A stretch of 64,000 nucleotides of DNA from Bdellovibrio sp. (GTDB taxonomy: Bacteria; Bdellovibrionota; Bdellovibrionia; Bdellovibrionales; Bdellovibrionaceae), in contig JAKFCY010000002.1 in assembly GCA_036676395.1 (NCBI GenBank), forward strand, positions 640,001-704,000, written 5' to 3'. Below are positions 26,082-47,571 of the stretch, piece after piece (position 1 is the first letter of the stretch; each line of letters begins with the position of its first letter). Under the pieces are notes generated by a model. The model ran no database searches. It saw only the letters and a list, made by a program, of their open reading frames with translations, and was not told the origin of the DNA. Made by a program: the position numbers and the translations under genes.

Positions 26082-26852
26082 ATGAAACAACATACAACAG
26101 CAATTTTATTCGCAGTAACATTAACGACATTATTAACTTTCAGCATGAATACAGCCAATGCAATGGGTCGCGGAAAACCAGTTGAGCAAGAACCAAAGCC
26201 AACACCTAAACCGCCAGTAGTCACTCCGGCGCCGACGCCGAAGCCACCAACTCCAGTTCCAGCTCCGCCACCAAAACCACCAACACCAGCACCTGGTGCT
26301 GATACTTCTGATGCAGTTCCGATGTGGGAAGCCAAAGTTTCTGGAAGCCGTGATTGGTCTAATCATTTATATTCAGAACTTGATCGTTTAGGTCAGGATT
26401 TATTAGATGTGATTCCTGCCGATGCCGCGACGTTTTGCCCGAATTATAAAAATCTAACTTATAACGAGCGTAAAAAATATTGGATCTATATGATTTCTGC
26501 GATGACAAGATTTGAAAGTTCTTTCAAAACAGATACAACGTATACAGAAGATTTCACAGATAGCTCTGGAAAAAAAGTCGTCAGCCGCGGTTTATTACAA
26601 ATCTCGATTGAAAGTGCCAATGGTTATGATTGTGAACTAAGTAATGCGCAAGACTTACATAATCCACTTAAGAATTTAAGTTGTGGTGTAAGAATTCTTG
26701 ATCGTTGGGTAGGCCGTGATGGTCGTATTGCTGGTAAAGTTGATTCTAAATGGCGCGGTGGTGCAAGATACTGGGCTGTAATGCGCGAAGGTGACAAGAC
26801 ATCTTATAAAACGATCTTAAGCTCGAGCAAAAATTTAAAAATGTGTAAGTAG
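26082..26852 (+). CDS. Secreted lytic transglycosylase (SLT-like) with Pro/Thr-rich linker
   Basis: Signal peptide, PKPTP linker, M.RFESSF (catalytic Glu), SRGLLQIS, N..CGVRIL. Confidence 0.85.
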   Translation: MKQHTTAILFAVTLTTLLTFSMNTANAMGRGKPVEQEPKPTPKPPVVTPAPTPKPPTPVPAPPPKPPTPAPGADTSDAVPMWEAKVSGSRDWSNHLYSELDRLGQDLLDVIPADAATFCPNYKNLTYNERKKYWIYMISAMTRFESSFKTDTTYTEDFTDSSGKKVVSRGLLQISIESANGYDCELSNAQDLHNPLKNLSCGVRILDRWVGRDGRIAGKVDSKWRGGARYWAVMREGDKTSYKTILSSSKNLKMCK

Positions 26853-26944
26853 TTCTTTCAGCTAGATTGGCTTAATCTGAGACAGTGATAAGCCAATCTA
26901 AAAAATTATTTTAATTTCACAGCCAATCATTCCGAAATATAATC

Positions 26945-27703
26945 ATGGTTGAATCAGCTGTAGAAGATAAAAAAATATTTCTTGTCGTTACTGAAGATAA
27001 AGCAAAAATGCAATCTATCTCGGCAGTGATCCGTTCGCATACGAATAAGGCCGCAATTTTTGAGGCCAGCGAGTTGCATGCAGCTCTGTTTAAATTTCGT
27101 AATGCGGTTCCGCATGTGATTGTTCTAGATTTAGAGGTTTCTAAGTTTTCAACTATTCAGCTAGTGAGTGATCTTTTAAAAGGTGAACACAATCAATTTT
27201 CAGTGATTTTTACCAGTGAAATTCCGGAAAATGAGTTGTTCATTGATCAAGTGATCACTGGGCAAGTTCAGTTTTTAACTGACTACACTGATAAGGCTTG
27301 CTTTAGCCAATGTCTAACAAAAGCACTTAAACGTTTGCAGCAAGAAAAGAAATCTGAATTTATCTTGCGTCAGCTAGTGTCTGGTGAGCTGCTCTTTGAA
27401 GAGGGGCATCCGGGTGACAGTATATTTTTGGTTAAAAGCGGTGAACTTGTTGCCTGGAAACTGAAAAATGGTCAGCGTGTGGATTTAGGAACTATCGGTC
27501 CTGGTGAGTTTGTTGGTGAGATGGCGCATCTTAATCAAGAGCCGCGTTCGGCAACTGTTTCTGCCAGTCAAGCCAGTGAGCTTATCGAAATACCATTTGG
27601 CAGTCTGGATATGATTTTATTTTCGAAACCCTCGTGGTCGAAAGCCCTCTTTATGACGTTGTCAAAACGCCTTAAAATCACTAATGCAAAGCTATCAGCT
27701 TAA
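26945..27703 (+). CDS. Receiver-like plus cyclic-nucleotide-binding domain protein
   Basis: N-terminal degenerate receiver (PHVIVLDL); C-terminal LFEEG..GD..FLVKSG...GEFVGEMA...PRSATV. Confidence 0.85.
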   Translation: MVESAVEDKKIFLVVTEDKAKMQSISAVIRSHTNKAAIFEASELHAALFKFRNAVPHVIVLDLEVSKFSTIQLVSDLLKGEHNQFSVIFTSEIPENELFIDQVITGQVQFLTDYTDKACFSQCLTKALKRLQQEKKSEFILRQLVSGELLFEEGHPGDSIFLVKSGELVAWKLKNGQRVDLGTIGPGEFVGEMAHLNQEPRSATVSASQASELIEIPFGSLDMILFSKPSWSKALFMTLSKRLKITNAKLSA

Positions 27704-27743
27704 CACTAGATACGTTAGTAAACCTGTGTTACACTAATTCTGT

Positions 27744-28046
27744 ATGAAGAAGTGCATTTTTAGTCTATTAACAATAGTTGCAATCTCGTTATTAGTTTCA
27801 ATAACCCAGGCGGCGCAATGCACTCTGGTGGGTGGTACTGATTTTTCGCTTTGCACAGCGATTAGTAAAAACAACTGTGGTTTAGCGGCGAAGGGCGAAT
27901 TTATGAAATGCAAAGCCGTAACTGCAAAAAACTGCGGTTTAGCCGGTCAGGATTATTTCTTAACTTGTAAAGCGATGCTTGATCGTAATTGTGGTTTGGT
28001 TAAAGAACCTGGCTTCAGTCTTTGTTCAGCTGTAACCAAAGAGTAA
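27744..28046 (+). CDS. Small secreted Cys-rich protein with four 19-aa repeats
   Basis: Signal peptide followed by 4x C-x-L-x5-F-x2-C-x-A-x4-N. Confidence 0.75.
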   Translation: MKKCIFSLLTIVAISLLVSITQAAQCTLVGGTDFSLCTAISKNNCGLAAKGEFMKCKAVTAKNCGLAGQDYFLTCKAMLDRNCGLVKEPGFSLCSAVTKE

Positions 28047-28052
28047 TTATTC

Positions 28053-28760
28053 GTGGCTAAAAAAATCCCCAGTAAATATCAACCAAAAGGGTTTCGCATC
28101 CTTCATGAAGACCGTGACGTGATTGTCGGTAATAAATCACCCGGCATTCTTACGGTGGGCGCTCTGTGGGAACAAGAAAACACTATTCATAACATTTTGA
28201 ATCAGTATATTCGTAAGGGTAATTCCAGATCACGTGCCTGTGTGTTCGTTGTTCATCGTTTAGATCAGGCTACCTCTGGTGCTTTGATCTTTGCTAAGAC
28301 CGAAGAAGTGCAGCAGTATTTAAAGAATAACTGGAAATCGACAGTTAAAACTTATTTTGCCATTGTGCACGGGCTGTTAACGAAGAAATCCGGCACTATC
28401 GAAAGTTACCTATCAGAAGATGAAGATTATCATGTGCATTCAAGCCAGGATGCAGGTTCAGGAAAGCTTGCACAAACGCAGTACGAAGTCTTAACTGAAG
28501 TGGCAGGATTTAGTTTAGTTAAAATTAATTTATTAACCGGTAAAAAAAATCAGATTCGCGTGCATATGGCTGAACTTGGTCACCCAGTGGTGGGTGACGG
28601 TAAATATGGTAAAGCCAATACAAAATTTAAAAACTTAGCCTTGCATTCGGCAAGTCTTGAATTTACCCATCCTTTTACTCAGAAAAGAATTTTAATTAAA
28701 GCCAGTGTGCCCGCATATTTTCACGATCTGATCCCTTTCGACTATAATAATATCAATTAG
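28053..28760 (+). CDS. RluA family pseudouridine synthase
   Basis: NKSPG, VHRLD.ATSG, TGKKNQIRVH, GHPVVGD.KYG, LHS. Confidence 0.95.
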   Translation: MAKKIPSKYQPKGFRILHEDRDVIVGNKSPGILTVGALWEQENTIHNILNQYIRKGNSRSRACVFVVHRLDQATSGALIFAKTEEVQQYLKNNWKSTVKTYFAIVHGLLTKKSGTIESYLSEDEDYHVHSSQDAGSGKLAQTQYEVLTEVAGFSLVKINLLTGKKNQIRVHMAELGHPVVGDGKYGKANTKFKNLALHSASLEFTHPFTQKRILIKASVPAYFHDLIPFDYNNIN

Positions 28761-28882
28761 TTTTCAAGAAGGTGAGCCTACAAACTTAATATCAGTTCGT
28801 TTGCATTTTCACTGCGTTTGCAAATTTAAAAATAAAACGGCAAAGATTTGTTTTTTATTTGGTCTGGCACTAACCATAGGGC

Positions 28883-29509
28883 ATGAAAAAAACAGGAAAA
28901 ACCGCTCGCTTTAAATTACAACGTCGTCTTTTAACAGAACTTCCAGGTTTAGGAAAAGCCGGAGCGCTTGAACGTCGCCCATACCCACCAGGCCAACACG
29001 GTGGTAAACGTATTAAATATTCAGATTACCGTTTACAATTAGAAGAAAAACAAAAAGTTCGTGTGCATTATGGCATCCGCGAAGAACAATTGATCCGTTT
29101 AGTTCAATTAGCTAAAAAGAACAAATCCGGCGGCAAGTGGATCAATTCTTTAATTAACATTTTAGAAAAACGTATTGATAATATCGTATTTCGTGCTGGT
29201 TTTGTGCCAAGCATGCGTGCAGCTTCGCAAATGATTTCTCATGGCCAAGTTTTAGTGAATAACAAAAAAGTTACTATTCGTTCGCAAAAACTTAAAGTAG
29301 GCGATGTGGTTTCAATCACTGCAAAAGGCTTAACTAACCAAATCTTTTTACATTCAAAACAAAGTCCACGTTTAACTTTACCAGACTGGTTAGATAAAGA
29401 TGTTTCTGACACTAAAGCCGCAGTGACGTTGAAAGATGAACCAAATTTAGGTTCTGTGCCATTTGCATTAGACGAAGCATTAGTCACATCGTACTACTCA
29501 AAGGCGTAA
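28883..29509 (+). CDS. rpsD: 30S ribosomal protein S4 (stand-alone copy)
   Basis: PYPPGQHG, SDY..QLEEKQK, LEKRIDN.VFRAGF, ASQ.ISHG.VLVN, ends YYSK. Confidence 0.95.
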   Translation: MKKTGKTARFKLQRRLLTELPGLGKAGALERRPYPPGQHGGKRIKYSDYRLQLEEKQKVRVHYGIREEQLIRLVQLAKKNKSGGKWINSLINILEKRIDNIVFRAGFVPSMRAASQMISHGQVLVNNKKVTIRSQKLKVGDVVSITAKGLTNQIFLHSKQSPRLTLPDWLDKDVSDTKAAVTLKDEPNLGSVPFALDEALVTSYYSKA

Positions 29510-29514
29510 TTTTT

Positions 29515-29736
29515 ATGGCGACAAAATTAAATGATGGCGATTTAAATTGTTATGCGATTGATGATGACACGGCCGTGATTTCAGTTAAAGAACAAAAGTT
29601 TGTTGTTGATTATTCGACACTGATGGATTTTTTAACTGAACTTGCCGTTGTGGCCGCGCAAGTTGAAAATGCAACGATGAATGCAACTGCAGAACAAGAG
29701 CAATTAGAAACTTGTGCTTGTGTAAGATTGCATTAA
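29515..29736 (+). CDS. Small acidic hypothetical protein
   Basis: Starts 5 nt after rpsD on the same strand; 73 aa. Confidence 0.55.
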   Translation: MATKLNDGDLNCYAIDDDTAVISVKEQKFVVDYSTLMDFLTELAVVAAQVENATMNATAEQEQLETCACVRLH

Positions 29737-29825
29737 TTGCGTTTCATATTGAGACTTTTTTAATGAGTTCTTAACAACTGACACAAATATATTCTAAGGT
29801 GTTTGCTAAGTTGGGTTTTAGACCT

Positions 29826-29852
29826 CTAGTAGGTGTATGAAAATGCCGAAAA
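29826..29852 (+). promoter_or_regulatory. Putative sigma28/FliA promoter of fibre adhesin 2
   Basis: CTAG-N15-GCCGAAAA, ending 7 nt before GTG 29860. Confidence 0.55.
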
Positions 29853-29859
29853 ATAGAGG

Positions 29860-32800
29860 GTGGAACGTCGCTGTAACTACCGCTTAATATTACTATTTTT
29901 TGTACTATTTTTTTCAATAGTTGCATCGGCATCACCACAGGTTACGACTTACCAAGCCCGCATCGTAAAGCCTGATGGCTTACCTTTAGAAACTGCCAAC
30001 GTTAATTTTAAATTTTCTGTTTTAAATCCTGCCGCGGATTGCGTTTTGTATGCTGAAACCTTTTCAGCGATCAATATGGCAAATTCTGCAGGTATTATTT
30101 CGTTCACGCTAGGGTCTGGTGTAAAAACTTTTCCCGCAAGTGCCACAACATTTGCGCAGGTTTTTAATAATTCAACGCCTGTGCTTTCTTGTGATGCGGG
30201 TGGCCCGCCAGATTATTCTCCGCTGTCTTTTGACGTTCGAAAAGTGGTCATGCAGTTCAACGATGGGGCTGGTTGGCAAACACTTCCGGCAATGTCGATC
30301 AATGCCGTTCCGTATTCGATCTATTCTGGTGATTCACTTCGTTTAGGTGGAGTCAGCGCAACTAACTATGTTCAATACTCAACAATTCCAACTTGTACTG
30401 CTTCGCAAGCTATTCGTTATGATGGTTCAAGTTTTTCTTGTGTAACATTAGCCAGTGGTGGTGGCGCATCCAGTACAATCACTTCCGGTGATGTGACAAC
30501 AGCTCTAGGGTATACTCCGGCGAACACTTCAACTGTAGGAACTTCATTTTCCACGGTGACTGCGACGTTAAGTTCATTAACTAGTTCACAGACAACTTTA
30601 ACTTCAACAATAAGTACTTTATCAGCATCATATTCAGCTTTGTCCGCTTCGATGACGACTTTTACAGATTCGCAATGGACGGCAAGTGCTACAGATATTT
30701 TTTATACTTTAGGAAATGTCGGTATCGGAACAAGTACGCCAGTTACTAAACTTGATGTGGCCGGCGGCATTCGTATTAGTATGGAACCAGCCACCTGTGC
30801 TGCAGGTCTTGCAGGAACATTACGTTATAACTTAGGCATTGTAGAATACTGTAACGGAACATCATGGACTGCATTTGGCGTTTCGGGTGCTGGAATTTTA
30901 GCTATAAACGGCTTAACTTCAGGCTCACAAACTTTTGCGATGGGTGCCACTGGCACTCAACCTAATGTGTCTTCAACGGGAACAGTGCACACAATTAATA
31001 TTCCAAATGCAGCGTCAGCTGCGGTGACTGCAGGTCTTTTAGCAAATACAGATTATCAAATTTTTACAAATAAAATGAATGCCACTAGTGCCGCAGTGAT
31101 TTCGGCATTAGGTTATACTCCGGCAAGTGTTACAGCTCATGTTATGGCAACTTACCAAGTGCGCGTCGCGACTAGTGGCAATATCGCTTTATCAGGAAAT
31201 CAAACCATCGATGGCATAAGTGTTGTCGCTGGTGATCGTGTCTTAGTTAAAAATCAATCGGCACAGCAAGAAAATGGTGTGTATGTTGCAAATGCTGGTG
31301 CATGGACACGTGCAGCAGATATAAATACTTGGGAAAAAACTATCGGCTACAAAGCTCACGTTACAGAAGGTGCAGCTTGGGAAGGAATGACTTTTTCTTC
31401 AAACACATCAGTGGGCGGCACTCTTGATAGCACAGTTTTTGAGTGGAGTTCTGCAGGTAGTACAAACATCAGTTTAAATACAGCGCAGGGCTTTAGTGCA
31501 CTTGGTGCAAATACGACAGGAACAACAAACGCTGCATATGGGCCAGGAACTCTGGCTTTAAATACAACCGGATCAGCGAATACAGCCAATGGATTTCGTG
31601 CTCTTTATTCAAATTCAACGGGATCGTATAATACTGCCAACGGAGCAATTTCACTTTTTAGCAATATCTCGGGATCATATAATACGGCCAACGGATATCG
31701 TAGTCTTTACTTTAATACCGGAAGTTACAATACGGCGACAGGTTATCGTTCTCTTTATTTAAATTCCACAGGAATTAATAATACAGCTAACGGCTATAAT
31801 GCTCTGACAAATACGACGACCGGAAGTAATAATACAGGAGTTGGTTTTAGCGCGGGAAGCGCGATCACTACCGGAAGCAACAACGTCGTCATTGGTTCAA
31901 ACACAGGTTCAAGTTTTGCGACAGATTCAAATAATATTTCAATCAGTGATGGGGCGGGTAACGAACGAATTCGCGTGGTCTCCAGCGGTAATGTGGGGAT
32001 TGGAACGACAACACCGGTGACAGCGCTTCAAGTTTCAGGTGGTGTACGTATCAGCATGGAATCTGCTATTTGTGCCACAAGTTATGCGGGAACTTTACGT
32101 TATAATTCTGGCAACGTGGAATTTTGTAACGGTGCAAGCTGGTCGGCCTTCGGTGTAGCTGGAGCTGGAATAACAAATTTCAATGGTTCAACTTCCGGCT
32201 CGCAAACTTTTGCCAATGGTACGACAGGTACAGCTCCTTTATTTGTAACCACTAATGGCGTGCATACATTAAATATTCCACTTGCATCAGCAGGCTCTGT
32301 GACGGCGGGCCTTTTATCGAATGCGGATTACGCAACGTTCATGAATAAGATGACATCAAGTTCTGCAAGTATCGCACAAGCGTTAGGTTATACACCAGCA
32401 GCCAGTGGTGCGATCGCTATTGCTGATTTAACAGATGCACACACTAATTCTAACGACAGTATTTTTATCGGTGTCGGTACACCCCAATCGGGGACAACAT
32501 CCAATAATACAGCGCTCGGAGTAAGTGCTTTAGCGTTGCTTACCGACGGTTCAGAAAACGTCGCGATCGGCAAAGAAGCTTTGTATAGTAACACCAGCGG
32601 TTATGCCAATACTGCAATCGGGTGGGAATCTTTATTTTCTAATACTACGGGTGGAAATAACACTTCTGTGGGTAATGAATCAATGGCGGCGAATACGACA
32701 GGTTATTCTAATAGTGCGCTCGGAAGTTGGGCTTTATATAGAAATACAACTGGTAGCTTCAACGTAGCTCTTGGTGAGGCAGCCATAGATTATAATACGA

Positions 32801-35800
32801 GTGGTAATTATAACATTGGTATTGGTATGACAGCGGGACGTTATAATACCAATGGCAATTACAATACGTTTCTTGGATCAAACGCTGGACGAGGTCAAGG
32901 AACTAATCTTTCAAATGTTTCAGGAAGCACTTTGGTTGGTTACAGTGCGGGATCAAATATTCTTACGGGCGCGAATGGCAATACACTTTTAGGTTATAAA
33001 GTGGGTGATAATATCACAACCGGATCTAAGAACATCGTCATCGGTTATGATATCGATGCCACAACAGCTACGGCTTCTAACACATTAAACATTGGAAATC
33101 TTATTTTTGGTACAGAAGTAAATGGTGTAGGTACGGCTATTTCTACAGGCAACGTCGGAATTGGCATCACTGACCCAAAAGCCATATTACATTTAAAAGC
33201 AGGAACCACAGCGGCCAATACGGCTCCTTTGAAATTTACCAGCGGAACATTACTTACCTCTCCAGAATCAGGGACTGTTGAATATGATGGAACTAATTTA
33301 TATTTCACTGATAGTACAAATATCCGTAGAACGATAACTTCGACAGCCGGTGCAGGAACATACGATAGTGCTTCACTGATTTCAAATTCTGGTAATATCA
33401 CGATGTATCCAAATAGCGGAGCGGGCAGCGTTATTGTATCTGCCACAACGGCTTCAACGTCATCAAACACGGGAGCTCTTGTTGTAAAAGGTGGTGTAGG
33501 TGTTACAGGAGATATTAATGTATCAGGTACAATCAGCGCGACAGTAGGCTTAGTTACGCCATTAGTTGTTGGAAGCAATGCCTCGAGCGGAAGTCTAACC
33601 TTAAATTCAACGACTCATGCTAATAAAGGAAATATTTATATTTCGCCGCAAGACGCCGGTAAAGTGGCGATCGGTAATGTCGATCCGTTGGTAGGATTGC
33701 ATGTGCAAAAACCAGGTCCACTTAATTTAGTCGCGATATTTCAAGCCGGCGCAAGTTCGGGATCAATCGCTTTAGGAACCAATGCAACTTACCCAGCATC
33801 AGGTGGGCAAGTGCAAGGGTTAGATGGATCGGGTGCAGCCGGTTCATTAGTTTTAAATGCGATCGGTGGTTTTGTCGGAATCGGAACCGCGGCGCCATTG
33901 GCACCTCTTCATATAAGAAGACCATTTGGTTCTAGTCAGTCGTTACTCTTAGAAGGTGATTCTGCATCGACTGGAACTCCAAAACTTACATTTTTAGATA
34001 CTAACGGTGGATCTACGCAAGGCCATATTGGGTTCGATGCCACAAATGGTTTTAGCATGATGGGTGGTAAAGTTGGAATCGGTACTGTGTCTCCAGCAGG
34101 TGTACTCGAAATCAATACTCCGGATGCAACGCCAAATATTTTATTAAGCCGTACAGCTATGGCAACCAAATGGGCTATTCGTAATTCAAATAATGGCGTG
34201 AGTGATACGTTGTTAATCGGAGATAATGCAAATAATCTATCAGGCATTTCTATTGAAGCATCGGGCCGCGTAGGAATTGGGTTAACAATACCGGTAACTC
34301 AATTAGATGTATCAGGTGCAATTCGCATCAGCGATGATCAAACCGCGTGTAGTTCTGCAAACAAAGGGGCGATGCGTTTTAATCAGTCGACAAATATTTT
34401 TCAAATGTGTGATGGGATTTCGTGGAATACCTCGGCCAGTGCCGATTTGATTCCTGCAAGTTCGGTTGTGCTGATGTCGTCGTGTCCAGTAGGTTGGACA
34501 AATAATGGACTAGCTTCGGCTGCTGGACAGGGGGCGGTAACATGTAGTGGTATTACTTGTAGTCTTTGTCAGGCGCCAAGTGCTTCACTCGTGCCAGCAA
34601 GTTCAAATATGTTAATGGAGTCTTGCCCGTCGGGTTGGACAACCATGAATAAAGCCGGAGGCCCGGGTCGTTCTGGTTATACCCTAAGCGGCAGCATTGT
34701 TGATTTTGTGACTTGTCAATCTCCGGCGATAAGTTCTGTTATGCCCAAAGGTAGTCGTGTCATAATGCAATTTTGTCCGGCGGCGTGGAATGATTTAGGT
34801 GATTCAGGACCAGGGCAAATTCTGGCAACTTGCGGAGCAATACCTTGTCGTGTGTGTGAAGTTCCAGGCGGCGTAGCAAATCCAAGAGTGCTTTACGGTG
34901 GTACCGCTAGTGGTTCTGCAGCTTTAGGGGCTGAAGTAAGTATTATCGGCGGGCGTGGTGGTTCAACATCTGGCCAAGGAGGCCAAGTAAATATTCGCGG
35001 TGGTATGGCGAACGATGGTTTGGGCGGATCAGTGTTTATTAATGCAGGAGCCGCATCAACAACTACGAACACTAGCTATGCAGGGGCATCTATTTATTTA
35101 GAAGCGGGTGATGGTGTTGTTAGTGGTATCGGAGGAGTAATCAGTTTAAAAGCTGGCAAATCAGTAGAGGGAATCTTCGAAGATATTCATTTGCAATCCA
35201 CTGGTGGTCGTGTCGGCATCGGTACGACAAATCCCGAACAACGACTTCATGTTGCGGGTAATTCAGCACTGTTAGGTTCATTACAAACAAATATTTCAGC
35301 TTATGCCAGTGGTGGTATTCGCTTAACTGGCAATGGTGGAGCCTCGCAAGAAGCAATTTCTTTTTGGGGTGGTAATAGTGGCGGTGGTGCCGCGATTGCT
35401 TTTAGACGCGATGATAATTTAGGAAGTTATCTTGATTTTTACACAGATGATACCGGTTTCGGAAACATCACCCATGCAGCGACACTTAATAATTTAGGTA
35501 ATTTTGGTATAGGAACAGCTTCGCCAACCACTAGATTGCATGTAGCAAACTCTTCAACAGTAACAAATGCAGTAGCGACTTTAGAATCGACCGGAGCTGG
35601 CGGCAGACCTTACATGAAATTTCGCGGCGACGGTGCAGATATGGGTTATGTCGGTTACGGCAGTACGGCTCAACCCAATTTAATTCTTATGAACTATGTT
35701 TCTGGCCCGACCTACTTAGGAACAAATTCAGTAATACGCATGAGCATTACATCTGCAGGCTCAGTCGGTATCGGCACGCAAACACCAGAAAATTTATTAG

Positions 35801-36549
35801 ATGTCGCAGGCATTGCACAAGTAAATTACTTAAGGGTAGATGTTTCCGATGCCATCAGCGAGGGCGGAGAAATCCAGCTAATGGGTTCACCGACGTACAC
35901 AAATCTTCAGTTAGATAATTTTCAGGGAAATTTTAGAATACACACTTTGGCTGCGGGTAAAAAGATGCAGGTTCTAGGTGGTACGATGTCAGTTGAAGGA
36001 GCTAGTGGCACGAATTATTTTGCGGCAGCCGTGGGTATTGGCAATCCTTCGCCAGCTGTGGCTCTTGATGTGACCGGTGACATCCGCGGAACAGGTACTG
36101 TGGCGACGTGGTCAGATTTGCGCACAAAGAAAAATATCAAAGTGATTCCTGATTCGCTAAATAAAATTTTACATCTTCGGGGTGTGGGTTTTGATTGGCG
36201 CACTGATGAATTTCCGGATAAAAAATTTAAAACGACCCCTGATATCGGGGTGATTGCTCAGGAAGTTGAAAAAGTATTTCCTGAAGTTGTTAAAACTTCA
36301 TCTGATGGTTATAAATCTGTTGGATATGCGCAGTTAGTGGCCCCGTTAATTGAAGCGGTTAAAGAGCTTTATTATAAAATCACAGGTGTCGAGCGTAAGA
36401 TTGATCGCACGGTAGCTGCAGTCGCAAGTATCGAAGCTAAAAAAGCGGATAAAACTGAAGTGGATGCTTTAAAAGCTGAAAATGCAGAGCTAAAATCTCG
36501 TTTAGACCGCTTAGAAAAAATGATGCTAAACCAGCAAAAATCGAAATAA
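29860..36549 (+). CDS. Giant mosaic trimeric fibre adhesin (MAT-like, 2229 aa) with C-terminal S74 chaperone
   Basis: Signal peptide, TYQARIVKPDG...INAVPYS N-domain, GNVGIGT and NTANG repeats, WSDLRTKKNI...IGVIAQEVEKVFPEVV...GYAQLVAPLIEAVKEL, coiled coil. Confidence 0.92.
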   Translation: MERRCNYRLILLFFVLFFSIVASASPQVTTYQARIVKPDGLPLETANVNFKFSVLNPAADCVLYAETFSAINMANSAGIISFTLGSGVKTFPASATTFAQVFNNSTPVLSCDAGGPPDYSPLSFDVRKVVMQFNDGAGWQTLPAMSINAVPYSIYSGDSLRLGGVSATNYVQYSTIPTCTASQAIRYDGSSFSCVTLASGGGASSTITSGDVTTALGYTPANTSTVGTSFSTVTATLSSLTSSQTTLTSTISTLSASYSALSASMTTFTDSQWTASATDIFYTLGNVGIGTSTPVTKLDVAGGIRISMEPATCAAGLAGTLRYNLGIVEYCNGTSWTAFGVSGAGILAINGLTSGSQTFAMGATGTQPNVSSTGTVHTINIPNAASAAVTAGLLANTDYQIFTNKMNATSAAVISALGYTPASVTAHVMATYQVRVATSGNIALSGNQTIDGISVVAGDRVLVKNQSAQQENGVYVANAGAWTRAADINTWEKTIGYKAHVTEGAAWEGMTFSSNTSVGGTLDSTVFEWSSAGSTNISLNTAQGFSALGANTTGTTNAAYGPGTLALNTTGSANTANGFRALYSNSTGSYNTANGAISLFSNISGSYNTANGYRSLYFNTGSYNTATGYRSLYLNSTGINNTANGYNALTNTTTGSNNTGVGFSAGSAITTGSNNVVIGSNTGSSFATDSNNISISDGAGNERIRVVSSGNVGIGTTTPVTALQVSGGVRISMESAICATSYAGTLRYNSGNVEFCNGASWSAFGVAGAGITNFNGSTSGSQTFANGTTGTAPLFVTTNGVHTLNIPLASAGSVTAGLLSNADYATFMNKMTSSSASIAQALGYTPAASGAIAIADLTDAHTNSNDSIFIGVGTPQSGTTSNNTALGVSALALLTDGSENVAIGKEALYSNTSGYANTAIGWESLFSNTTGGNNTSVGNESMAANTTGYSNSALGSWALYRNTTGSFNVALGEAAIDYNTSGNYNIGIGMTAGRYNTNGNYNTFLGSNAGRGQGTNLSNVSGSTLVGYSAGSNILTGANGNTLLGYKVGDNITTGSKNIVIGYDIDATTATASNTLNIGNLIFGTEVNGVGTAISTGNVGIGITDPKAILHLKAGTTAANTAPLKFTSGTLLTSPESGTVEYDGTNLYFTDSTNIRRTITSTAGAGTYDSASLISNSGNITMYPNSGAGSVIVSATTASTSSNTGALVVKGGVGVTGDINVSGTISATVGLVTPLVVGSNASSGSLTLNSTTHANKGNIYISPQDAGKVAIGNVDPLVGLHVQKPGPLNLVAIFQAGASSGSIALGTNATYPASGGQVQGLDGSGAAGSLVLNAIGGFVGIGTAAPLAPLHIRRPFGSSQSLLLEGDSASTGTPKLTFLDTNGGSTQGHIGFDATNGFSMMGGKVGIGTVSPAGVLEINTPDATPNILLSRTAMATKWAIRNSNNGVSDTLLIGDNANNLSGISIEASGRVGIGLTIPVTQLDVSGAIRISDDQTACSSANKGAMRFNQSTNIFQMCDGISWNTSASADLIPASSVVLMSSCPVGWTNNGLASAAGQGAVTCSGITCSLCQAPSASLVPASSNMLMESCPSGWTTMNKAGGPGRSGYTLSGSIVDFVTCQSPAISSVMPKGSRVIMQFCPAAWNDLGDSGPGQILATCGAIPCRVCEVPGGVANPRVLYGGTASGSAALGAEVSIIGGRGGSTSGQGGQVNIRGGMANDGLGGSVFINAGAASTTTNTSYAGASIYLEAGDGVVSGIGGVISLKAGKSVEGIFEDIHLQSTGGRVGIGTTNPEQRLHVAGNSALLGSLQTNISAYASGGIRLTGNGGASQEAISFWGGNSGGGAAIAFRRDDNLGSYLDFYTDDTGFGNITHAATLNNLGNFGIGTASPTTRLHVANSSTVTNAVATLESTGAGGRPYMKFRGDGADMGYVGYGSTAQPNLILMNYVSGPTYLGTNSVIRMSITSAGSVGIGTQTPENLLDVAGIAQVNYLRVDVSDAISEGGEIQLMGSPTYTNLQLDNFQGNFRIHTLAAGKKMQVLGGTMSVEGASGTNYFAAAVGIGNPSPAVALDVTGDIRGTGTVATWSDLRTKKNIKVIPDSLNKILHLRGVGFDWRTDEFPDKKFKTTPDIGVIAQEVEKVFPEVVKTSSDGYKSVGYAQLVAPLIEAVKELYYKITGVERKIDRTVAAVASIEAKKADKTEVDALKAENAELKSRLDRLEKMMLNQQKSK

Positions 36550-36678
36550 TTGTAAAGATCAGGATCATTCAATATCGTCAATCTCCCAATTAAGCTTAGG
36601 CTTTGGCTGTTTCGATTTATTATAGCCGTCTTCATATTCCGGATTCCCACCCACAAGTCTTCTCATTTCGTAATTACT

Positions 36679-37131
36679 GGGCACCGCCCCTGAACGTCGT
36701 GTTGCATTGGTTTACACGCATGCAACAAACATCTTTTTTAAGAACTCAGCGATTTTCTAAACTTCACGGCGGAGAACCTTCTATTGGGCGTCGGCGTGCG
36801 CGCAGGCCCCTGACGACGAAACTTCCGATTCATGTGACTTTACGCTCTGATTTTGCCTACGGCGGGCGGTGCCTTATGAAACACCACAAATTGATCTATG
36901 CTATTCTGCGCAAGGCCTCAAAACGATTTAATATTTCAATCTACGAGCGCGCGATTTGTGGTAATCATATTCATCTTTTAGTGCGTGGAAAAAAACGTAT
37001 AGATTTACAGAATTTTTTTCGGGTGGTGGCTGGTCATATTGCTCAACAGATCTTGCTTCAGTTTCCGATCCGTCAAAACGAGCGATTAGCTACGAAATTA
37101 CTGAATCGCCGTAAGCAGCGGGGCGGTGCCC
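36679..37131. repeat. 12-bp perfect inverted repeat pair GGGCACCGCCCC (36679-36690) / GGGGCGGTGCCC (37120-37131)
   Basis: Read directly; the two are exact reverse complements. One copy lies upstream of the HUH gene and one inside it. Confidence 0.8.
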
Positions 37132-37352
37132 CCCTAGTTCATGAAAATAAATGTAAGCACCCGAAAAATCAGTATAAATTTTGGCAGGCGTTGGTGTTTT
37201 CAAGACTACTTTCAGGATGGGGACGCGAGTATCAAAGCGTGAAAAAATATATCGTGCAGAATACATTAGAAGCGCTGAAGCTTATTCCTTATCAACAACG
37301 TAAACATCGCTACAATGTTCAATATAACCAAAAAGTGAATAATACTTCATAG
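36720..37352 (+). CDS. HUH Y1 tyrosine transposase-like protein (IS200/RAYT-related)
   Basis: IHVTLR, NHIHLLV (HUH), FWQ...SR, YI.QN (catalytic Tyr); start likely MQQTSF. Confidence 0.8.
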   Translation: MQQTSFLRTQRFSKLHGGEPSIGRRRARRPLTTKLPIHVTLRSDFAYGGRCLMKHHKLIYAILRKASKRFNISIYERAICGNHIHLLVRGKKRIDLQNFFRVVAGHIAQQILLQFPIRQNERLATKLLNRRKQRGGAPLVHENKCKHPKNQYKFWQALVFSRLLSGWGREYQSVKKYIVQNTLEALKLIPYQQRKHRYNVQYNQKVNNTS

Positions 37353-40419: not shown

Positions 40420-40442
40420 TTAATTAGAAAAAATTTGATTTT

Positions 40443-41394: not shown

Positions 41395-41417
41395 ATAGCA
41401 CAACAAAGGAGAACACT

Positions 41418-41570
41418 ATGAAAAAATCAACAGCCTCAAATCGTACGAGCAGAACAGCATCGAACTCTAGCTCGGGTTCTAGTTCGCGCAGAACTGGCTC
41501 ACAATCCGGAAGTAATTCTGGAAGCAGTTCAGGCCGCGGCTCTGCAAACAGCTCACGTCAAGAACGCTAG
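41418..41570 (+). CDS. 50-aa Ser/Arg/Gly-rich microprotein (not in ORF track)
   Basis: AAGGAG RBS, ATG 41418 to TAG 41570: MKKSTASNRTSRTASNSSSGSSSRRTGSQSGSNSGSSSGRGSANSSRQER; terminator follows. Confidence 0.7.
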   Translation: MKKSTASNRTSRTASNSSSGSSSRRTGSQSGSNSGSSSGRGSANSSRQER

Positions 41571-41590
41571 TTTTTTTACTATCACAAATT

Positions 41591-41626
41591 TAAAGCCACT
41601 TGCCTTCGGGTAGGTGGCTTTTTTTA
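41591..41626 (+). terminator. Intrinsic terminator
   Basis: AAAGCCACTTGCC-TTCG-GGTAGGTGGCTTT plus T tract. Confidence 0.9.
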
Positions 41627-41738
41627 TTTCCTATGCTAAAGCCGCGTAATTGCAGATGTTAGTCTGTATTTGCGTCTCATGCTGTTAAGTACTTCATCTT
41701 ATTCAACGATAAAGTATTTACCAACATGTGAGGTCATT

Positions 41739-42584
41739 GTGAAAAAGCTAACCACTTTAATTCTGTTCTCGTTATTTACATTAAATGCTCAGGCAATTGA
41801 TATGACAAAAATTCAGGTTCAATTAGGACAAATGAATTTTCAAAATAACAAAGGCTCGGGCGTTTTAAATAATCTATTACTTGAAACTGACGGTGGTCTT
41901 TCACAAAGTGCAGACTCTTCAGCAGCTGCAGTGGCCACAAAAATAGAACTTTCACGCCAAGGAAAAACTGTAAAAGTAAATACCGGGGCCATGAATATCG
42001 TCGTGAAGAATGCTAACGACATGCTGACCAAGATTCAAGAAATGCAAATTTCTAAATTAAGTGTGTCGATGGGGTCAAGCCAGCATCAATTCAGCGTAGC
42101 CTCGGCGCACTTAAGTCATGAGTCGACAGGTGAAATTATGGCCGAAGATTTAAATGTAGTCTGTACGTACAAAAGCATAGGCGCCTTAGATTTTTCAAAA
42201 GTTGTCGATCAGTGTTTAGTAAAATCTTCAATGCGCGCAGAGCGTTTAGAAGTTCCTGATATGAACAGCTTTTTTGAAGAATCATTGTTAGGAGTGCCCC
42301 TACAACCTGAAAGTGATGTTTTACAAACTGTTAAAGATCTTGAAATGGAAATCACGAAAGGTGATTTTGAAATGAGTCTAAAAATCAAAGGTATTCCGTT
42401 AGTGCGTTTAAAATCACTCGGCAATATTAAAGCAGACATGGTAAAAAAGCGCGCAACAATTCGTGTAGATAAAGTAAAGCTGGGTTTTATTGGCGTGACT
42501 GATATCGTTATGAATCAGCTTAAGAAAAAACTGCCGCCAGAAAATTTTCGTGTAGAGTCTCCGTATATTTTTGTGACGTGGTAA
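41739..42584 (+). CDS. Secreted hypothetical protein
   Basis: GAGGT RBS, GTG start, signal KKLTTL...AQA. Confidence 0.7.
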   Translation: MKKLTTLILFSLFTLNAQAIDMTKIQVQLGQMNFQNNKGSGVLNNLLLETDGGLSQSADSSAAAVATKIELSRQGKTVKVNTGAMNIVVKNANDMLTKIQEMQISKLSVSMGSSQHQFSVASAHLSHESTGEIMAEDLNVVCTYKSIGALDFSKVVDQCLVKSSMRAERLEVPDMNSFFEESLLGVPLQPESDVLQTVKDLEMEITKGDFEMSLKIKGIPLVRLKSLGNIKADMVKKRATIRVDKVKLGFIGVTDIVMNQLKKKLPPENFRVESPYIFVTW

Positions 42585-42679
42585 TCGGATTATTATAAGC
42601 CCTTAGTCCAGATCTGCTGGACTAAGCTTAAGTCGTGATATTAGAGCTCCGATCCTAGACTTATCTAGGAGAACACCAT

Positions 42680-43219
42680 ATGACAAATCTTAATATCAAG
42701 CTCAACCTTACGACTTTCTTTTTCGCTTTAGCCTTAGCTCTGCAATTTTCAGCTGCGACGGCAGAAGCAAAAACAGTAGAAGATATTCCCAATTTATTTA
42801 AAATGAGCGACAACTTATACCGCGGTGGCCGCGTAACAGATGCGGGCATGAAGCAACTAAAAAAAATGGGCGTGACGACAATCCTTAATGTTGAAAACGA
42901 TGAAGAAGCCATAGCCATTGATAAAAAATTCGCAGCTAAATATGGCTTACGTTATATTTCAGTGCCTTTCGAGACTTTTAAAAAGCCAAGTGATGCTAAA
43001 GTTGATCACGTGTTAAAACTATTACAAGATCGCAGTCTTGGGCCAATCTACTTACATTGCAAACATGGTCGTGACCGCACTGGAATGCTTATGGGTTTAT
43101 ACCGTGTAGAAGCTGACGGCTGGCACCCAAAAGCGGCTTATAAAGAAATGAAAGACCGCGGTTTCAGAACTCTTATCTGGACATTAGATAACTACTATAA
43201 AAAAAGATCTGGCTACTAA
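42680..43219 (+). CDS. Secreted dual-specificity/tyrosine phosphatase family protein
   Basis: Signal peptide; LYRG; HCKHGRDRTG active-site loop. Confidence 0.9.
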   Translation: MTNLNIKLNLTTFFFALALALQFSAATAEAKTVEDIPNLFKMSDNLYRGGRVTDAGMKQLKKMGVTTILNVENDEEAIAIDKKFAAKYGLRYISVPFETFKKPSDAKVDHVLKLLQDRSLGPIYLHCKHGRDRTGMLMGLYRVEADGWHPKAAYKEMKDRGFRTLIWTLDNYYKKRSGY

Positions 43220-43224
43220 GATTT

Positions 43225-45189
43225 CTAGTGTAATGTTTTTGCGCTGTGCTGGTAGATATAATGAACGGTCGAAACAAGCTGACGAAAATTTAATGGTTTT
43301 GTGATATGTGCATCACAACCAGCGGCCTTAGTTTTTACCCGTTCCTCTAGCATGGCGTGCGCAGTCAGTGCGATAATTGGTTTACTAAAATTTTCAGAGC
43401 GTAACGTGCGCGTGACTTCATAGCCATCAAGTTCAGGCATTTGAATATCCATTAAGACAACATCAAATTCATTTTTGCGGGCTAATTCTAAAGCTTCAGC
43501 CCCATCACTGGCTACTGTAACCGAGGCGCCGTGATTTGCGAGCACATATTTAATCAGCTCTTGGCTATCTGGTGAATCTTCAGCCAATAAGATGCGCACA
43601 TGATTCAAATTAATCGTTACCGGAGGGTGAGTGTTTTCTGGAATCTGGCAGCGGTTTTCTTCAGTTGTAATAAGGGCTGTGAATTCAAATGAAAAAGTAG
43701 AGCCTTCGCCTAAGCTAGTTTTGACGATTTGAATATCACCGCCCAAAGCCTGAGCTAAGCGTTTTGATAATGTTAAGCCAAGGCCCGTACCGCCGTATTT
43801 TCGGGTGGTGCTATTATCTGCCTGAGTGAACGGGCGAAACAATCGTTCGGCCTGCTCAGATGTTAGCCCGATACCTGTATCGCAAATGTTAATTTTAAAT
43901 TTACACTGATCACCAGTTAACATTTCGCTGTGGATATCAATTGTTACGCCACCATCTTTTGTGAATTTAACGGCATTGCCGATCAAGTTAATTAAAATTT
44001 GGCGCACGCGGGTGGGATCAGATTTAATTCTGATCGGAACCTGACTGCCTAAGTTTAAATTCAGAAAAATATTTTTGTTTTTGGCTTTTTCGCGAAACAT
44101 AGCCAGAACTTCAAAAAGTAAATGATCAAAGGCTGTTTCTATATTTTCGACTTCTAAATGACCGGATTCAACTTTGGACAAATCTAAGATGTCATCGATG
44201 ATGCGCGAAAGACTACATCCATTTTTAATAATCATTTCTAAAAAACGGTCTTTATCTGTTTCAGTTAAAGTCTTTTCTTTTAGAACTTCGGCAAAACCCA
44301 TGATCGATGCCAATGGTGTGCGAATCTCGTGCGACATGTTCGCTAAAAACGTGGTTTTTAAGTTATTCGCGCGTTCAGATTCATCTTTTGCGCGGATTAA
44401 TTCTGATTGGGCTAATTTTTCAGTCGTGATATCACGGTAAAAAATAGCCAGGCCACCATCAGCTTTTGGGTAGACATTCATTGCGGCCCATAGTTGTAAT
44501 GGCGCATAGAATTCTTCAAACTTTACACTCACTCGTTCTTTCATTACGCGTAAATAAGTTTCTACAAAAAGCGAACTTTGAAAAATGGGTTCTGAAAAAA
44601 ATAAGTCTAAAAAATTCTGACCGATTTGTTTATGTCTTTTAATGCGGGCGATGCGCTCATGATAAGAATTTAATTGGGTGATTTTCCAGTCTTTATCGAT
44701 AGCGATAAAACCCTCTTCAACATTCTCAATAATATCCACGATTTCATGTTGCGTTTGTTTGGTGTCATCAATATCGGTGCAGGTGCCGATCCATGAAATG
44801 ATTTTACCTTCGTTATTAAAATTTGGAACTGCGCGTGTTAAAAACCAGCGGTAAACGCCATCAAAACGACGAAGCTGGTAGATGACTTCGTAGGTCTTTC
44901 CCGCAGCTATGGCGGCTTCCCAGATATCTAAGGTCATATTCAAATTATCAGGGTGGTGGGCTTGGCGCCAGCCATTCTGAAGCGATTGTTCTGCAGTTAA
45001 GCCTGTAAAGTCATACCACTGCTGGTTAAACCATAACAGATTACCTTGGGGGTCTGTAATCCATCCCAATTGCGGAGCCGTATTAGCAAGAGCTTTATAA
45101 TGCTCTTGCGTAGTCGTGGTGTTAACCATCTGTTTCACAAAACCTCGTTTAGTCTTCATGAGATACGCCTCTCCTGATTGATTGTCCAT
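43225..45189 (-). CDS. PAS-PAS hybrid sensor histidine kinase/receiver
   Basis: PAS domains, FLANMSHEIRTPL, NAVKFT, DTGIG, GGTGLGL, receiver LMDIQMP...KP. Confidence 0.95.
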   Translation of the reverse strand: MDNQSGEAYLMKTKRGFVKQMVNTTTTQEHYKALANTAPQLGWITDPQGNLLWFNQQWYDFTGLTAEQSLQNGWRQAHHPDNLNMTLDIWEAAIAAGKTYEVIYQLRRFDGVYRWFLTRAVPNFNNEGKIISWIGTCTDIDDTKQTQHEIVDIIENVEEGFIAIDKDWKITQLNSYHERIARIKRHKQIGQNFLDLFFSEPIFQSSLFVETYLRVMKERVSVKFEEFYAPLQLWAAMNVYPKADGGLAIFYRDITTEKLAQSELIRAKDESERANNLKTTFLANMSHEIRTPLASIMGFAEVLKEKTLTETDKDRFLEMIIKNGCSLSRIIDDILDLSKVESGHLEVENIETAFDHLLFEVLAMFREKAKNKNIFLNLNLGSQVPIRIKSDPTRVRQILINLIGNAVKFTKDGGVTIDIHSEMLTGDQCKFKINICDTGIGLTSEQAERLFRPFTQADNSTTRKYGGTGLGLTLSKRLAQALGGDIQIVKTSLGEGSTFSFEFTALITTEENRCQIPENTHPPVTINLNHVRILLAEDSPDSQELIKYVLANHGASVTVASDGAEALELARKNEFDVVLMDIQMPELDGYEVTRTLRSENFSKPIIALTAHAMLEERVKTKAAGCDAHITKPLNFRQLVSTVHYIYQHSAKTLH

Positions 45190-45301
45190 AGGTTGTGTAA
45201 ATATTTTTTTATCGAGTTAAAGAGCTGTCAAAGATTTGTAAAAAAATCCGGAATGGCCTTTGCAAAAAGCAGATTTAAAAACAATAATAGCGAAAGAATT
45301 T

Positions 45302-46807
45302 ATGTTAGAAAAACACCTTGCACAATATTTTAACCTGTTAAATTTCAGACGAGGACAGCTCGAGATTATCTCTGCTGTTTTGGCTAAAAAAGATGCCCTG
45401 GCGGTTTTACCCACAGGCGGTGGTAAATCTTTGTGCTATCAATTTCCTGCAACCTATCAGCAAAAGCTAGTTGTTGTGGTATCTCCCCTCATTGCCTTGA
45501 TGAAAGATCAGGTCATGTCGCTGCAAAACCGCGGTGTTAAAGCCGGATGTTTATATTCGGGACAGACGGAATCCGAAAAACGACTAATTTTTTCACAGAT
45601 CAACGAAGGCGGCTGTTACGTTCTGTATTTATCGCCGGAACGCGTGCAAAAACCAGGGTTTCAAGAATGGATTAAAAACCGCGACATCGCTTTGTTTGCT
45701 ATTGATGAGGCACACTGTGTGTCACAGTGGGGGCACGATTTTCGTGAAGAGTATGCTGAATTAAAAATCTTAAAAAAAATTCGTCCTGATGTTCCAGTGT
45801 TAGCTTTAACAGCGTCGGCAACACCTACAGTATTAGATGACATCGCCAAAAATTTAGAATTAAAAAATCCAGAACGTATGGTGCATGGGTTTTACCGGCC
45901 AAATCTTTATTATCAAGTGGCTGCGTGCACGGATGATAAAGAAAAATCACAAATGCTTTTACAAAGTATTAAACAACATCCAACAGGTCGTGTGATCGTT
46001 TATTGTGGTACCCGTAAGATCACCGAAGAGCTTGCTGCCTTTTTACAAGAACGCGTAGAAAAAGTTGGCTTTTATCACGCCGGTTTAAGCCAAAACGAAC
46101 GCACGCAAATGCAGACTAATTATGCCTCTGGAAAATTACGTATCCTTGTGGCCACGAATGCTTTTGGTATGGGGATCGATCAACCTGATGTAAGGCTTGT
46201 CGTGCATTTTCAAATGCCAGCTAACATTGATTCGCTTTATCAAGAGATGGGCAGAGCTGGGCGTGATGAGCAGCCATCAACGTGTTTGTTATTGTACGCC
46301 AAAAAAGACAAAGGTTTACAGTCATTTTTTATTACCAGTTCTCAGGCGACAAAACCGATTAAAGATTTACGTTGGCGAAATTTAAATGCATTAGTCAGTT
46401 ATTGTGAGGTCGCCGAATGTCGTCACGCTGAAATTTTAACGTATTATAAAGATTCAACGCGATTAAAATCCTGCGGTCACTGCGATGCCTGTGACCCAAA
46501 ATCTGCGCGGGCTATTGAAAAACTTGCGGTTGCGGTCATTGTAAAAAAATCTTCGGCTAAAAAAATTACTGAAAGCTCACTATCAGCGATCGAAGAGGCA
46601 CGTTTTCAAATTTTGCGAAAATGGAGAAAAGCTAAAGCCGAAGAATTAGATATTCCGGCCTTTGTGGTGTTCGGCGATAAAACTCTTATCGATATCGCAC
46701 AAAAAAATCCACAGAACTTAAATGAACTTAAAAACATTTACGGCATTGGCGAAGCCAAGTTAGAAAAATTTGGCTGGGATCTATTGGCACAATTAGGTGA
46801 CAGCTAA
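45302..46807 (+). CDS. recQ: RecQ family DNA helicase with HRDC
   Basis: PTGGGKSLCYQ, DEAHCVSQWGHDFR, QEMGRAGRD, Zn Cys cluster, HRDC PAFVVFGD.TL. Confidence 0.92.
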   Translation: MLEKHLAQYFNLLNFRRGQLEIISAVLAKKDALAVLPTGGGKSLCYQFPATYQQKLVVVVSPLIALMKDQVMSLQNRGVKAGCLYSGQTESEKRLIFSQINEGGCYVLYLSPERVQKPGFQEWIKNRDIALFAIDEAHCVSQWGHDFREEYAELKILKKIRPDVPVLALTASATPTVLDDIAKNLELKNPERMVHGFYRPNLYYQVAACTDDKEKSQMLLQSIKQHPTGRVIVYCGTRKITEELAAFLQERVEKVGFYHAGLSQNERTQMQTNYASGKLRILVATNAFGMGIDQPDVRLVVHFQMPANIDSLYQEMGRAGRDEQPSTCLLLYAKKDKGLQSFFITSSQATKPIKDLRWRNLNALVSYCEVAECRHAEILTYYKDSTRLKSCGHCDACDPKSARAIEKLAVAVIVKKSSAKKITESSLSAIEEARFQILRKWRKAKAEELDIPAFVVFGDKTLIDIAQKNPQNLNELKNIYGIGEAKLEKFGWDLLAQLGDS

Positions 46808-46917
46808 GCCAGAAGTAGTTTGAATTTCACCTACCTCGGGCCAGATTCTTTAGAACTTTGGTCCTAAATTCGCGTTCCAAATTATGCTTAATTTATAAAC
46901 ATACCGATAATAGAGGT

Positions 46918-47571
46918 ATGAAGACAAGATTACTACTATTAGCATCGTTTATCGTTTTATCTTTTAGTTCACATCAAGCCCTAGCGATGGGGCGTGGCAA
47001 GCCGGTCGAGCCGACACCAACGCCATCTTCTAAATATCAAGAAGGTGATATTATTTTTATTCAAAGCCAAACACAGCAAGCCGCCGCTCTTCGTGAATCG
47101 ACAGAGTCAGTTTGGACACATGTTGGTTTAATGATTAAGAAAAGCTCTAAATGGTATGTTGCTGAAGCGGTCGGGCCGTTAAAAGAAACTCCGTTAGCAG
47201 ATTTTATTGCGCGTTCAAAAAATAAATCATATCGCATCTATCGATATAAACATTTCGATGCAGCAACAATGACAAAAGCCTTAAAAGCCGCATTACCAAA
47301 ATATAACAAACCTTATGATATCTATTTTGAATGGTCACAAGAACGTATCTACTGTTCAGAGTTAACTTATCATGTGATGAAAGATGTCACTGGTTTTGAA
47401 TTAGGTCGTTTACAAAAAATGAAAGAGATGAGACTTGATGGTCCATACACACAAGCCTTAATCAAAAAACGTTATACAGATACGGGTAAAGAATTCGATC
47501 CCGAAGAGCTAATCATTACTCCAGTGAGTCAAGTCGAAGACGAAGACGTAACGCTGATCGAAGCAAAATAA
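46918..47571 (+). CDS. Secreted YiiX/YebB-like permuted papain-like (NlpC/P60) enzyme
   Basis: GDIIF, THVG, EAVGP, KPYD..F.W...IYCSEL; signal peptide from ATG 46918. Confidence 0.9.
   Translation: MKTRLLLLASFIVLSFSSHQALAMGRGKPVEPTPTPSSKYQEGDIIFIQSQTQQAAALRESTESVWTHVGLMIKKSSKWYVAEAVGPLKETPLADFIARSKNKSYRIYRYKHFDAATMTKALKAALPKYNKPYDIYFEWSQERIYCSELTYHVMKDVTGFELGRLQKMKEMRLDGPYTQALIKKRYTDTGKEFDPEELIITPVSQVEDEDVTLIEAK

Follow-up and report, generated by a model that had tools for sequence, protein, structure and literature searches.

The DNA analysed here, referred to as the window, is a 64,000 nt stretch from Bdellovibrio sp. (GenBank assembly GCA_036676395.1, contig JAKFCY010000002.1, forward strand positions 640,001 to 704,000), whose source genome measures 3.40 Mb with 39.6 % G+C. 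One of the two proteins described below has a close homologue that its source names Pseudobdellovibrio sp. Two genes of the window, one for an SLT-like lytic transglycosylase and one for a YiiX-like enzyme of the Peptidase_C92 family, encode exported proteins that share the same eight residues, MGRGKPVE (the tag), at the predicted mature N-terminus. The parts of the two genes are located as follows, in window positions.

26082..26852 (+): SLT-like lytic transglycosylase gene, 256 amino acids (aa) counted from the ATG; a TTG is in frame at 26061
26082..26162 (+): signal peptide of the SLT-like protein, 27 aa, a hydrophobic stretch and A-x-A, ending in ANA; cleavage predicted by rule
26163..26186 (+): tag MGRGKPVE, SLT-like copy
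26187..26321 (+): linker of the SLT-like protein, rich in Pro/Thr/Lys, ~45 aa
26322..26849 (+): SLT-like catalytic domain
46918..47571 (+): gene for the YiiX-like, permuted papain-fold Peptidase_C92 protein, 217 aa
46918..46986 (+): signal peptide of the C92 protein, 23 aa, ending in ALA; cleavage predicted by rule
46987..47010 (+): tag MGRGKPVE, C92 copy
47011..47043 (+): short Pro/Thr/Ser linker of the C92 protein, PTPTPSSKYQE
47044..47568 (+): C92 catalytic domain, with a Pfam match and a predicted local distance difference test (pLDDT) score in AlphaFold2 (AF2) of >90 from about residue 41

The C92 protein scores 103 bits against Pfam PF05708 (E 2e-29, cut-off 27), which places it in Peptidase_C92, and 160.7 bits against the NCBIfam YiiX model, under the equivalog cut-off of 216. 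Its residues His68 and Cys146 are invariant among 36 sequences. The SLT-like protein reaches 21.2 bits against Pfam SLT (PF01464, E 2e-4, cut-off 21.3), with homologues above the cut-off at 21.6 and 26.9 bits, and FES and GLLQIS motifs can be read in its sequence. In the AF2 model of the C92 protein residues 1–40 have pLDDT values of 54–65; residues 2–25, which take in most of the signal peptide, form a lone helix at 60–65 and the tag lies at about 54–60. The tag was considered as a piece of the catalytic fold and this was rejected, AF2 predicting it to be disordered both here and in the model of a third, DslA-like family described below.

Identity and conservation of the tag

The initial annotation had reported the same eight residues directly after the predicted signal-peptidase site of both proteins (ANA↓ and ALA↓, the arrow marking that site), a Pro/Thr-rich stretch following the tag in both, and a difference in the third base of six of the seven degenerate codons (atg ggt cgc gga aaa cca gtt gag vs atg ggg cgt ggc aag ccg gtc gag). 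All three are confirmed by the sequence. In a six-frame scan of the whole genome MGRGKP occurs at only these two places, and no tag carriers in this genome beyond the two window genes were returned by a profile search at E up to 1. The signal peptides of the two proteins are not specially alike, their mutual rank being 694–811 among 1819 signal-peptide-like open reading frames (ORFs), a number inflated by a caller that over-calls and places cleavage sites by rule only. Thus, the identity starts exactly at Met +1, and a common origin of signal peptide and tag was rejected on the same ranks. Shuffled N-termini of the 1819 ORFs share a mean of 2.7 eight-mers at any offset; it is not this count that excludes chance but the conservation of the tag in orthologues.

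Neither window protein has a lipobox, as the first mature residue is Met and no Cys +1 follows L-[AS]-[GA], and neither has a Tat signal, the n-regions MKQHTT and MKTR being without RR. No Pfam model matched either N-terminal piece at E up to 10, and sorting-signal profiles of NCBIfam/TIGRFAMs gave chance-level matches only (E 0.3) to the N-terminal 41–47 residues. Word searches of open-access text found no description of the motif. The tag was also considered as an ordinary lipoprotein N-terminus in which the Cys has been replaced. This was rejected, given that C-[GSA]..[KR]..P is present in just 4 of the 227 lipobox-like ORFs of the genome; these ORFs prefer A/S at position +2 and K at position +3 or +4.

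Genome searches covered the phylum Bdellovibrionota. When 101 genomes of the taxonomic family were scanned for the DNA pattern, a single further genome (G058) proved to have both copies, its two genes lying 21.9 kb apart. A looser pattern applied to the genus (52 genomes) gave 18 matches, and the control gave 1. Of the 18, 15 follow a signal peptide, and all 15 are in SLT-like or C92 genes; these 15 are usually paired, 8–22 kb apart on one strand, in six genomes. All 18 of the closest SLT-like homologues (62–98 % identity) keep [ML][GS]RG[KR]P, with Arg +3, Gly +4 and Pro +6 invariant, and [ML][GSA][RL]G[KRGSA]P, read by eye, is kept by all 35 of the closest C92 homologues (69–100 % identity). 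Among 47 distinct tagged C92 N-termini the Gly is found in 47, the Arg in 44 and the Pro in 44, counts that are partly circular as these N-termini were picked by a regular expression. The neighbouring signal-peptide and linker columns are variable, with entropies of 1.2–3 bits. Conservation in orthologues had been put forward by the initial annotation as one check on its proposal of an N-terminal sorting, modification or anchoring signal, and the motif is indeed kept in both SLT and C92 orthologues rather than being confined to two proteins.

At the 15 genus loci the six core codons show synonymous to non-synonymous differences of 31:6 (SLT pairs) and 68:20 (C92 pairs), compared with 46:69 (SLT) and 135:109 (C92) for the 14 signal-peptide codons just upstream; the counts are taken from sequence pairs, which are not independent. 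This synonymous excess bears out protein-level selection on the tag, which had first been argued from the codon divergence between the two window copies. The divergence is real, but it is peculiar to the C92 copy of this genome, where alone CGT, AAG and GTC occur. In other genomes the two copies of the tag differ at just 1–3 codons, and the argument is therefore weaker on its own than had been stated. The nearest relative, G116, shows about 5–8 base differences per 100 across the locus.

Copies only 1–3 codons apart in several genomes would allow for DNA exchange, and the tag might then lack a function, being a neutral leftover that recombination or gene conversion had moved from one gene to another and that was afterwards carried along. 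However, the similarity ends sharply at the tag borders with unrelated signal peptides before it, the tag is kept down to about 62–69 % protein identity while its flanks drift, and equivalent tags are present on unrelated proteins in four other taxonomic families. Since conservation is both deep and broad, a neutral remnant is extremely improbable.

Degenerate forms of the motif and alternation with lipoboxes

A looser form of the motif can be written as hydrophobic-small-basic/Gln-x-x-Pro. SLT-like orthologues of other genera begin with A↓MGQRLP, MGRKLP, MAQRPP, MGKKIP, FGQRLP and similar sequences, or carry a lipobox. The 120 best SLT homologues were classed by script as tagged (56), lipobox (47), without a signal peptide and truncated (8) or other (9); read by eye, the last nine consist of four tags, two cut lipoboxes, two truncated sequences and one with neither. 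The lipobox Cys sits where the tag starts in tagged homologues, which have a median of 40 aa from the mature N-terminus to the domain motif. The C92 family has three kinds of N-terminus, namely tagged clades, lipobox members and clades with a plain signal peptide, numbering 63, 11 and 45, respectively (script with four corrections by eye). The median stretch from the mature N-terminus to the domain is 10 aa in plain, 20 aa in tagged and 35 aa in lipobox members. One C92 paralogue clade has either FA↓FSRG[KR]P (FA↓FSRG[KR]P[FI]W) or LLTGC.

Alternation with lipoboxes would also be expected of a covalent modification site that replaces Cys lipidation, for example through acylation or cross-linking of the N-terminus or of a Lys. 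YiiX-like enzymes are related, according to the available text of one study, to staphylococcal acyltransferases that act on lipoprotein N-termini (PMC7387801). However, Arg, Gly, Ser or Leu often replaces the Lys at +5, so that no single modifiable side chain is invariant, and no modifying enzyme is linked to the tag. Additionally, tagged SLT forms are found in genera with few genomes that yielded a C92 homologue (one of eight Bdellovibrio genomes). A modification site of this kind is accordingly held to be very unlikely.

Carriers in other protein families were sought with two profiles, both of which also score signal-peptide and Pro-rich columns: profile 1, from 21 tagged N-termini, was run over the 101 genomes of the taxonomic family, and profile 2, from 39 N-termini, over 201 genomes of the phylum. 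Profile 1 matched a 401-aa protein of no known family (ALA↓MGSRLP..., E 1e-6 per genome), a polysaccharide lyase of PF14099 (ALA↓LGQRLP), two proteins of no known family with 225 aa (TFA↓FSRRKP) and 329 aa, a YkuD_2 L,D-transpeptidase (E 0.06) and, weakly, a LolA-like protein. The tag of the polysaccharide lyase is kept in two of three close orthologues, the third reading MGQNLF, without the Pro. Two tagged proteins of no known family gave nothing useful against PDB sequences.

Profile 2, at E up to 0.001, gave matches in 19 genomes. Of these matches, ten fall in four other taxonomic families and include a TolC-like OEP, another YkuD_2 enzyme and several proteins of no known family, YkuD_2 L,D-transpeptidases thus being tagged in two taxonomic families. 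All ten read A.A↓[FMLW]G[SAKR][KR][KRP]P, nine with [KR][KR]P and one with MGKKPP, and a Pro-rich stretch continues after the tag in eight. A profile designated A1 gave 0 matches at E up to 0.001 against 1.84 billion representatives, a database in which a 32-column profile cannot reach significance. A word-index search with C92 residues 1–40, too insensitive for other families, returned 11 proteins, all of them C92 orthologues. The LptD homologue of this genome (G000:C2:1562865, locus L154) starts VTKA↓LAQTGPPTSQK, which is weakly tag-like.

The 401-aa (DslA-like) family is present in 42 of 44 Bdellovibrio genomes, with a mature length of about 375 residues and no Pfam match. All 30 fetched loci (L118–L147) start A↓M[AGS][KQS][KARQ][PL][VIP] and continue into a Pro/Thr/Ser/Gly stretch, and none of the 30 has a lipobox. 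Its AF2 model has a mean pLDDT of 70.5, with the tag and linker at about 30. In fold it comes closest to the Bdellovibrio lysozyme DslA (6ta9_A; Z 9.0, root-mean-square deviation 3.3, 166 residues, VIA-align), followed at Z 4–6 by endolysins, GH19/GH23 enzymes and lytic transglycosylases; Foldseek against the PDB returned nothing at E up to 0.001. The family was not found, with the query used, in the four Pseudobdellovibrio genomes G000 (this genome), G058, G101 and G043. The initial annotation had proposed that the tag defines a class of envelope enzymes. This is supported in part: in this genome two genes carry the tag, and the genus scan found SLT and C92 genes only; across the phylum a degenerate tag is found on further, mostly wall-acting families.

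Tag carriers are few, with 1–4 matches per genome in five complete genomes, and this bears on whether the tag is a processing element. A-x-A followed by [MLF]-[GSA] makes up two overlapping (−3,−1) signal-peptidase sites, and the basic-x-Pro that follows could fix the cut, or guard the new N-terminus and linker from trimming. In both registers A/S at −1 and G/S/A at +2 suit the (−3,−1) rule. A Pro in position +5 or +6 would be expected to block aminopeptidases, and Bacteroidetes have, in their Q-rule, a lineage-specific constraint on the residue that follows the cut, as far as the accessible part of its description goes (PMC5837995). However, a motif restricted to 1–4 proteins per genome is no general feature of signal peptides. 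It also tracks proteins that have a tether and proteins with lipoprotein homologues, which a processing role does not predict, and such a role is considered unlikely.

Alternatively, the tag could be an address for crossing or leaving the outer membrane, read by a translocon or chaperone, with tagged forms released or secreted and lipobox forms tethered. Curli offer a parallel, in which CsgG/CsgE recognize CsgA by its first 22 mature residues. The same evidence of conservation and recurrence applies here, and most carriers are enzymes suited to a predator's attack on the walls of its prey. Likewise, the authors of the DslA study, in the text available, set lipobox tethering against general secretion on a signal peptide (PMC7511926). 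However, no candidate translocon was identified, the genes between and around the window pair are housekeeping genes, and the tagged TolC-like protein is an outer-membrane protein and not a secreted enzyme. An outer-membrane address is also regarded as an unlikely explanation.

Upstream boxes and other features of the window

A sigma28-like −10 element had been described before both genes, and boxes are indeed found 7 nt upstream of each ATG.

26047..26074 (+): conserved sigma28-like block TAAAGTCT-N12-CCCGATCA upstream of the SLT gene, ending 7 nt before the ATG
26067..26074 (+): CCCGATCA, 7 nt before the ATG of the SLT gene
46903..46910 (+): ACCGATAA, −10-like only, 7 nt before the ATG of the C92 gene

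The sigma28 (FliA) consensus is TAAA-N15-GCCGATAA, and both boxes contain CCGAT. At the SLT gene the block TAAAGTCTAGG is kept in six of seven orthologous loci, with TTTAAGTCTAGG at the remaining one (L064); at the C92 gene GTCGATA[AC] is found in six of seven other loci. The location of the boxes therefore stands, but their attribution to sigma28 does so less well: the C92 gene has no −35 match, TAAA-N14-17-CCGAT is not enriched in the window (5 found vs 3.5 expected), and with a −10 element just 7 nt before the ATG a leader would not fit. The case for a sigma28 promoter at the two genes is weak.

A linked system spanning the two window genes was considered and rejected, as the genes lying between and around them encode LigD/Ku, Lon, Hsp20, S4, RecQ and other housekeeping functions. 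At 18304-21740 (−) LigD, with ligase, phosphoesterase and primase-polymerase domains, adjoins Ku, the two making up a bacterial pair for non-homologous end joining. The product of 27744-28046 (+) is an exported protein of 100 aa that contains three or four 'NCGL...C' repeats and has no Pfam match. An ORF of 2229 aa at 29860-36549 (+) carries a Peptidase_S74 (endosialidase chaperone) domain at its C-terminus, and its N-terminus TTYQAKI[IV]KPDG[YL]PLE...VNF[KR]FT[IV]L recurs in no fewer than 16 further signal-peptide-like ORFs of the genome, including one near 14172 (−). Judging from sequence, this ORF is a member of a large paralogous family of fibre-like proteins. Directly after it, at 36603-37352 (+), is an ORF with a weak match to an IS200-like Y1 transposase.

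Possible role of the tag and comparison with known N-terminal signals

The locations and conservation described above raise the possibility that MGRGKPVE is a local, sharply conserved version of a short linear motif at the mature N-terminus of a few exported, envelope-acting Bdellovibrionota proteins, where it may serve as a lipid-free anchor or docking label. This reading, which is drawn from sequence and is put forward tentatively, is the best available because the conserved motif forms the free end of a disordered stretch, and homologues of its carriers have their lipid anchor at that very point. Its recurrence on unrelated folds also counts in favour, as does the length of the stretch before the C92 domain, which is shortest in plain, longer in tagged and longest in lipobox forms. 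The motif combines a hydrophobic residue (M/F/L/W), a small residue (G/S/A), basic or Gln residues and a final Pro, usually with a disordered Pro/Thr/Ser-rich stretch after it. The tag would then be at the free end of a flexible tether, in place of the acylated Cys of the lipoprotein homologues, and would keep the catalytic domain close to the membrane surface or on a receptor. The N-terminal amino group, the hydrophobic side chain and the two or three positive charges could make the contacts. Signal peptidase I presumably cuts just before the tag, and binding of the tag to a partner of any kind is likewise presumed. An architectural precedent for tag and linker is provided by the tethering of DslA, DslB and DslC of B. 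bacteriovorus, which have a lipobox and about 35 disordered residues; in the portion of their paper available, the authors see in the lipobox the means by which the lysozyme stays tethered to the predator (PMC7511926).

Several points weigh against an anchor or docking label. One hydrophobic residue with two or three charges would make a weak membrane anchor. Basic residues just past the cleavage site hinder Sec export, which makes their presence odd and is silent on anchoring. The relation of lipobox to tag could equally mean 'anchored versus released'. The relation itself is also open to question as a recurrent one: on a tree of the SLT catalytic domain at least eight tag/lipobox changes are needed (shuffled mean 31.7), all trees here being made with FastTree only, yet the well-supported branches force just one change, and so repeated switching between tag and lipobox is not firmly shown. 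In the polysaccharide-lyase copies and in the C92 copy of this genome the linkers are only short. Additionally, profile E-values overstate the weight of the tag itself, as signal-peptide and Pro-rich linker columns are included in the score, and nine profile 1 matches at E 0.014–0.1 gave no signal peptide plus tag (two that were read showed none, and seven are in short ORFs that were not read).

A broader form of the anchor or docking reading, rather more doubtful, is that Bdellovibrionota have a lipid-independent N-terminal address label (hydrophobic-Gly/Ser-basic-basic-Pro on a disordered tether) that is read by a dedicated envelope receptor or translocon, possibly LptDE, the complex bound by the similar N-terminus of LptM. 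Its effect would be to station enzymes that degrade walls and lipids on the surface of the predator, or to deliver them into the prey.

One proposal in print for how predatory bacteria direct their wall-degrading enzymes and hold them back is tethering by a lipobox-borne lipid, as far as the accessible text shows (PMC7511926). A portable, conserved tag that alternates with a lipobox offers a handle for tests of enzyme localization and release, and a search key for further members of the predatory enzyme set. It could possibly also become a tool for targeting cargo in these bacteria. Even if the tag were only a processing element, it would still be a lineage-specific rule fit for inclusion in signal-peptide predictors.

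Short sequences after the cut that set the destination of an exported protein are known from the first 22 mature residues (N22) of curli CsgA and from the lipoprotein export signal of Bacteroidetes. The tag follows the same principle of position, although the sequences and the phyla are different. A closer likeness is to the lipobox signal (Lgt/Lsp/Lnt) with tether, as in Bdellovibrio DslA/B/C: position at the first mature residue, a disordered linker and the kinds of enzyme are shared, and homologues swap one for the other (PMC7511926, from the text available). In contrast to the lipobox, the tag has no Cys and so no attachment of diacylglycerol, and the site preceding it fits signal peptidase I (A-x-A).

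The N-terminus of LptM (PF13627 LptM_cons, C-G-x-K-G-P-L) resembles the tag in its make-up: directly behind the first mature residue come a small residue, basic residues, Gly and Pro, and the sequence beyond these is rich in Pro. The best LptM_cons match in the genome reads C/GIKGKPLPP, compared with M/GRGKPVEP for the tag. LptM differs in having a lipidated Cys, which the tag lacks, and the two are offset by one residue. The tags gave no match to the 23-position LptM_cons profile at E up to 10, and the whole-genome scan lists four other places. LptM binds the LptDE translocon, in the text available of one description (PMC12065857); nothing links the tag to this partner of LptM. Two small lipoproteins may be recorded here. 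One, of 58 aa (LSLSAC/GIKGKPLPPIPEAP...KKKKK; G000:C3:487065-487115, − strand, locus L114), is the top LptM_cons match at 18 bits, below the cut-off, and its KGKPLPP recalls RGKPVEP of the tag. The other, C/GVKGRPQPPLYAPPMGRGKPT at locus L002 (G028:C327), has an LptM-like start and an internal MGRGKP.

The Bacteroidetes Q-rule, Gln at +1 of signal-peptidase-I substrates, is like the tag a lineage-specific pattern at a new N-terminus. The two differ in reach: the Q-rule, on the part of its description available, covers most exported proteins of Bacteroidetes (PMC5837995), whereas the tag marks just 1–4 proteins per genome.

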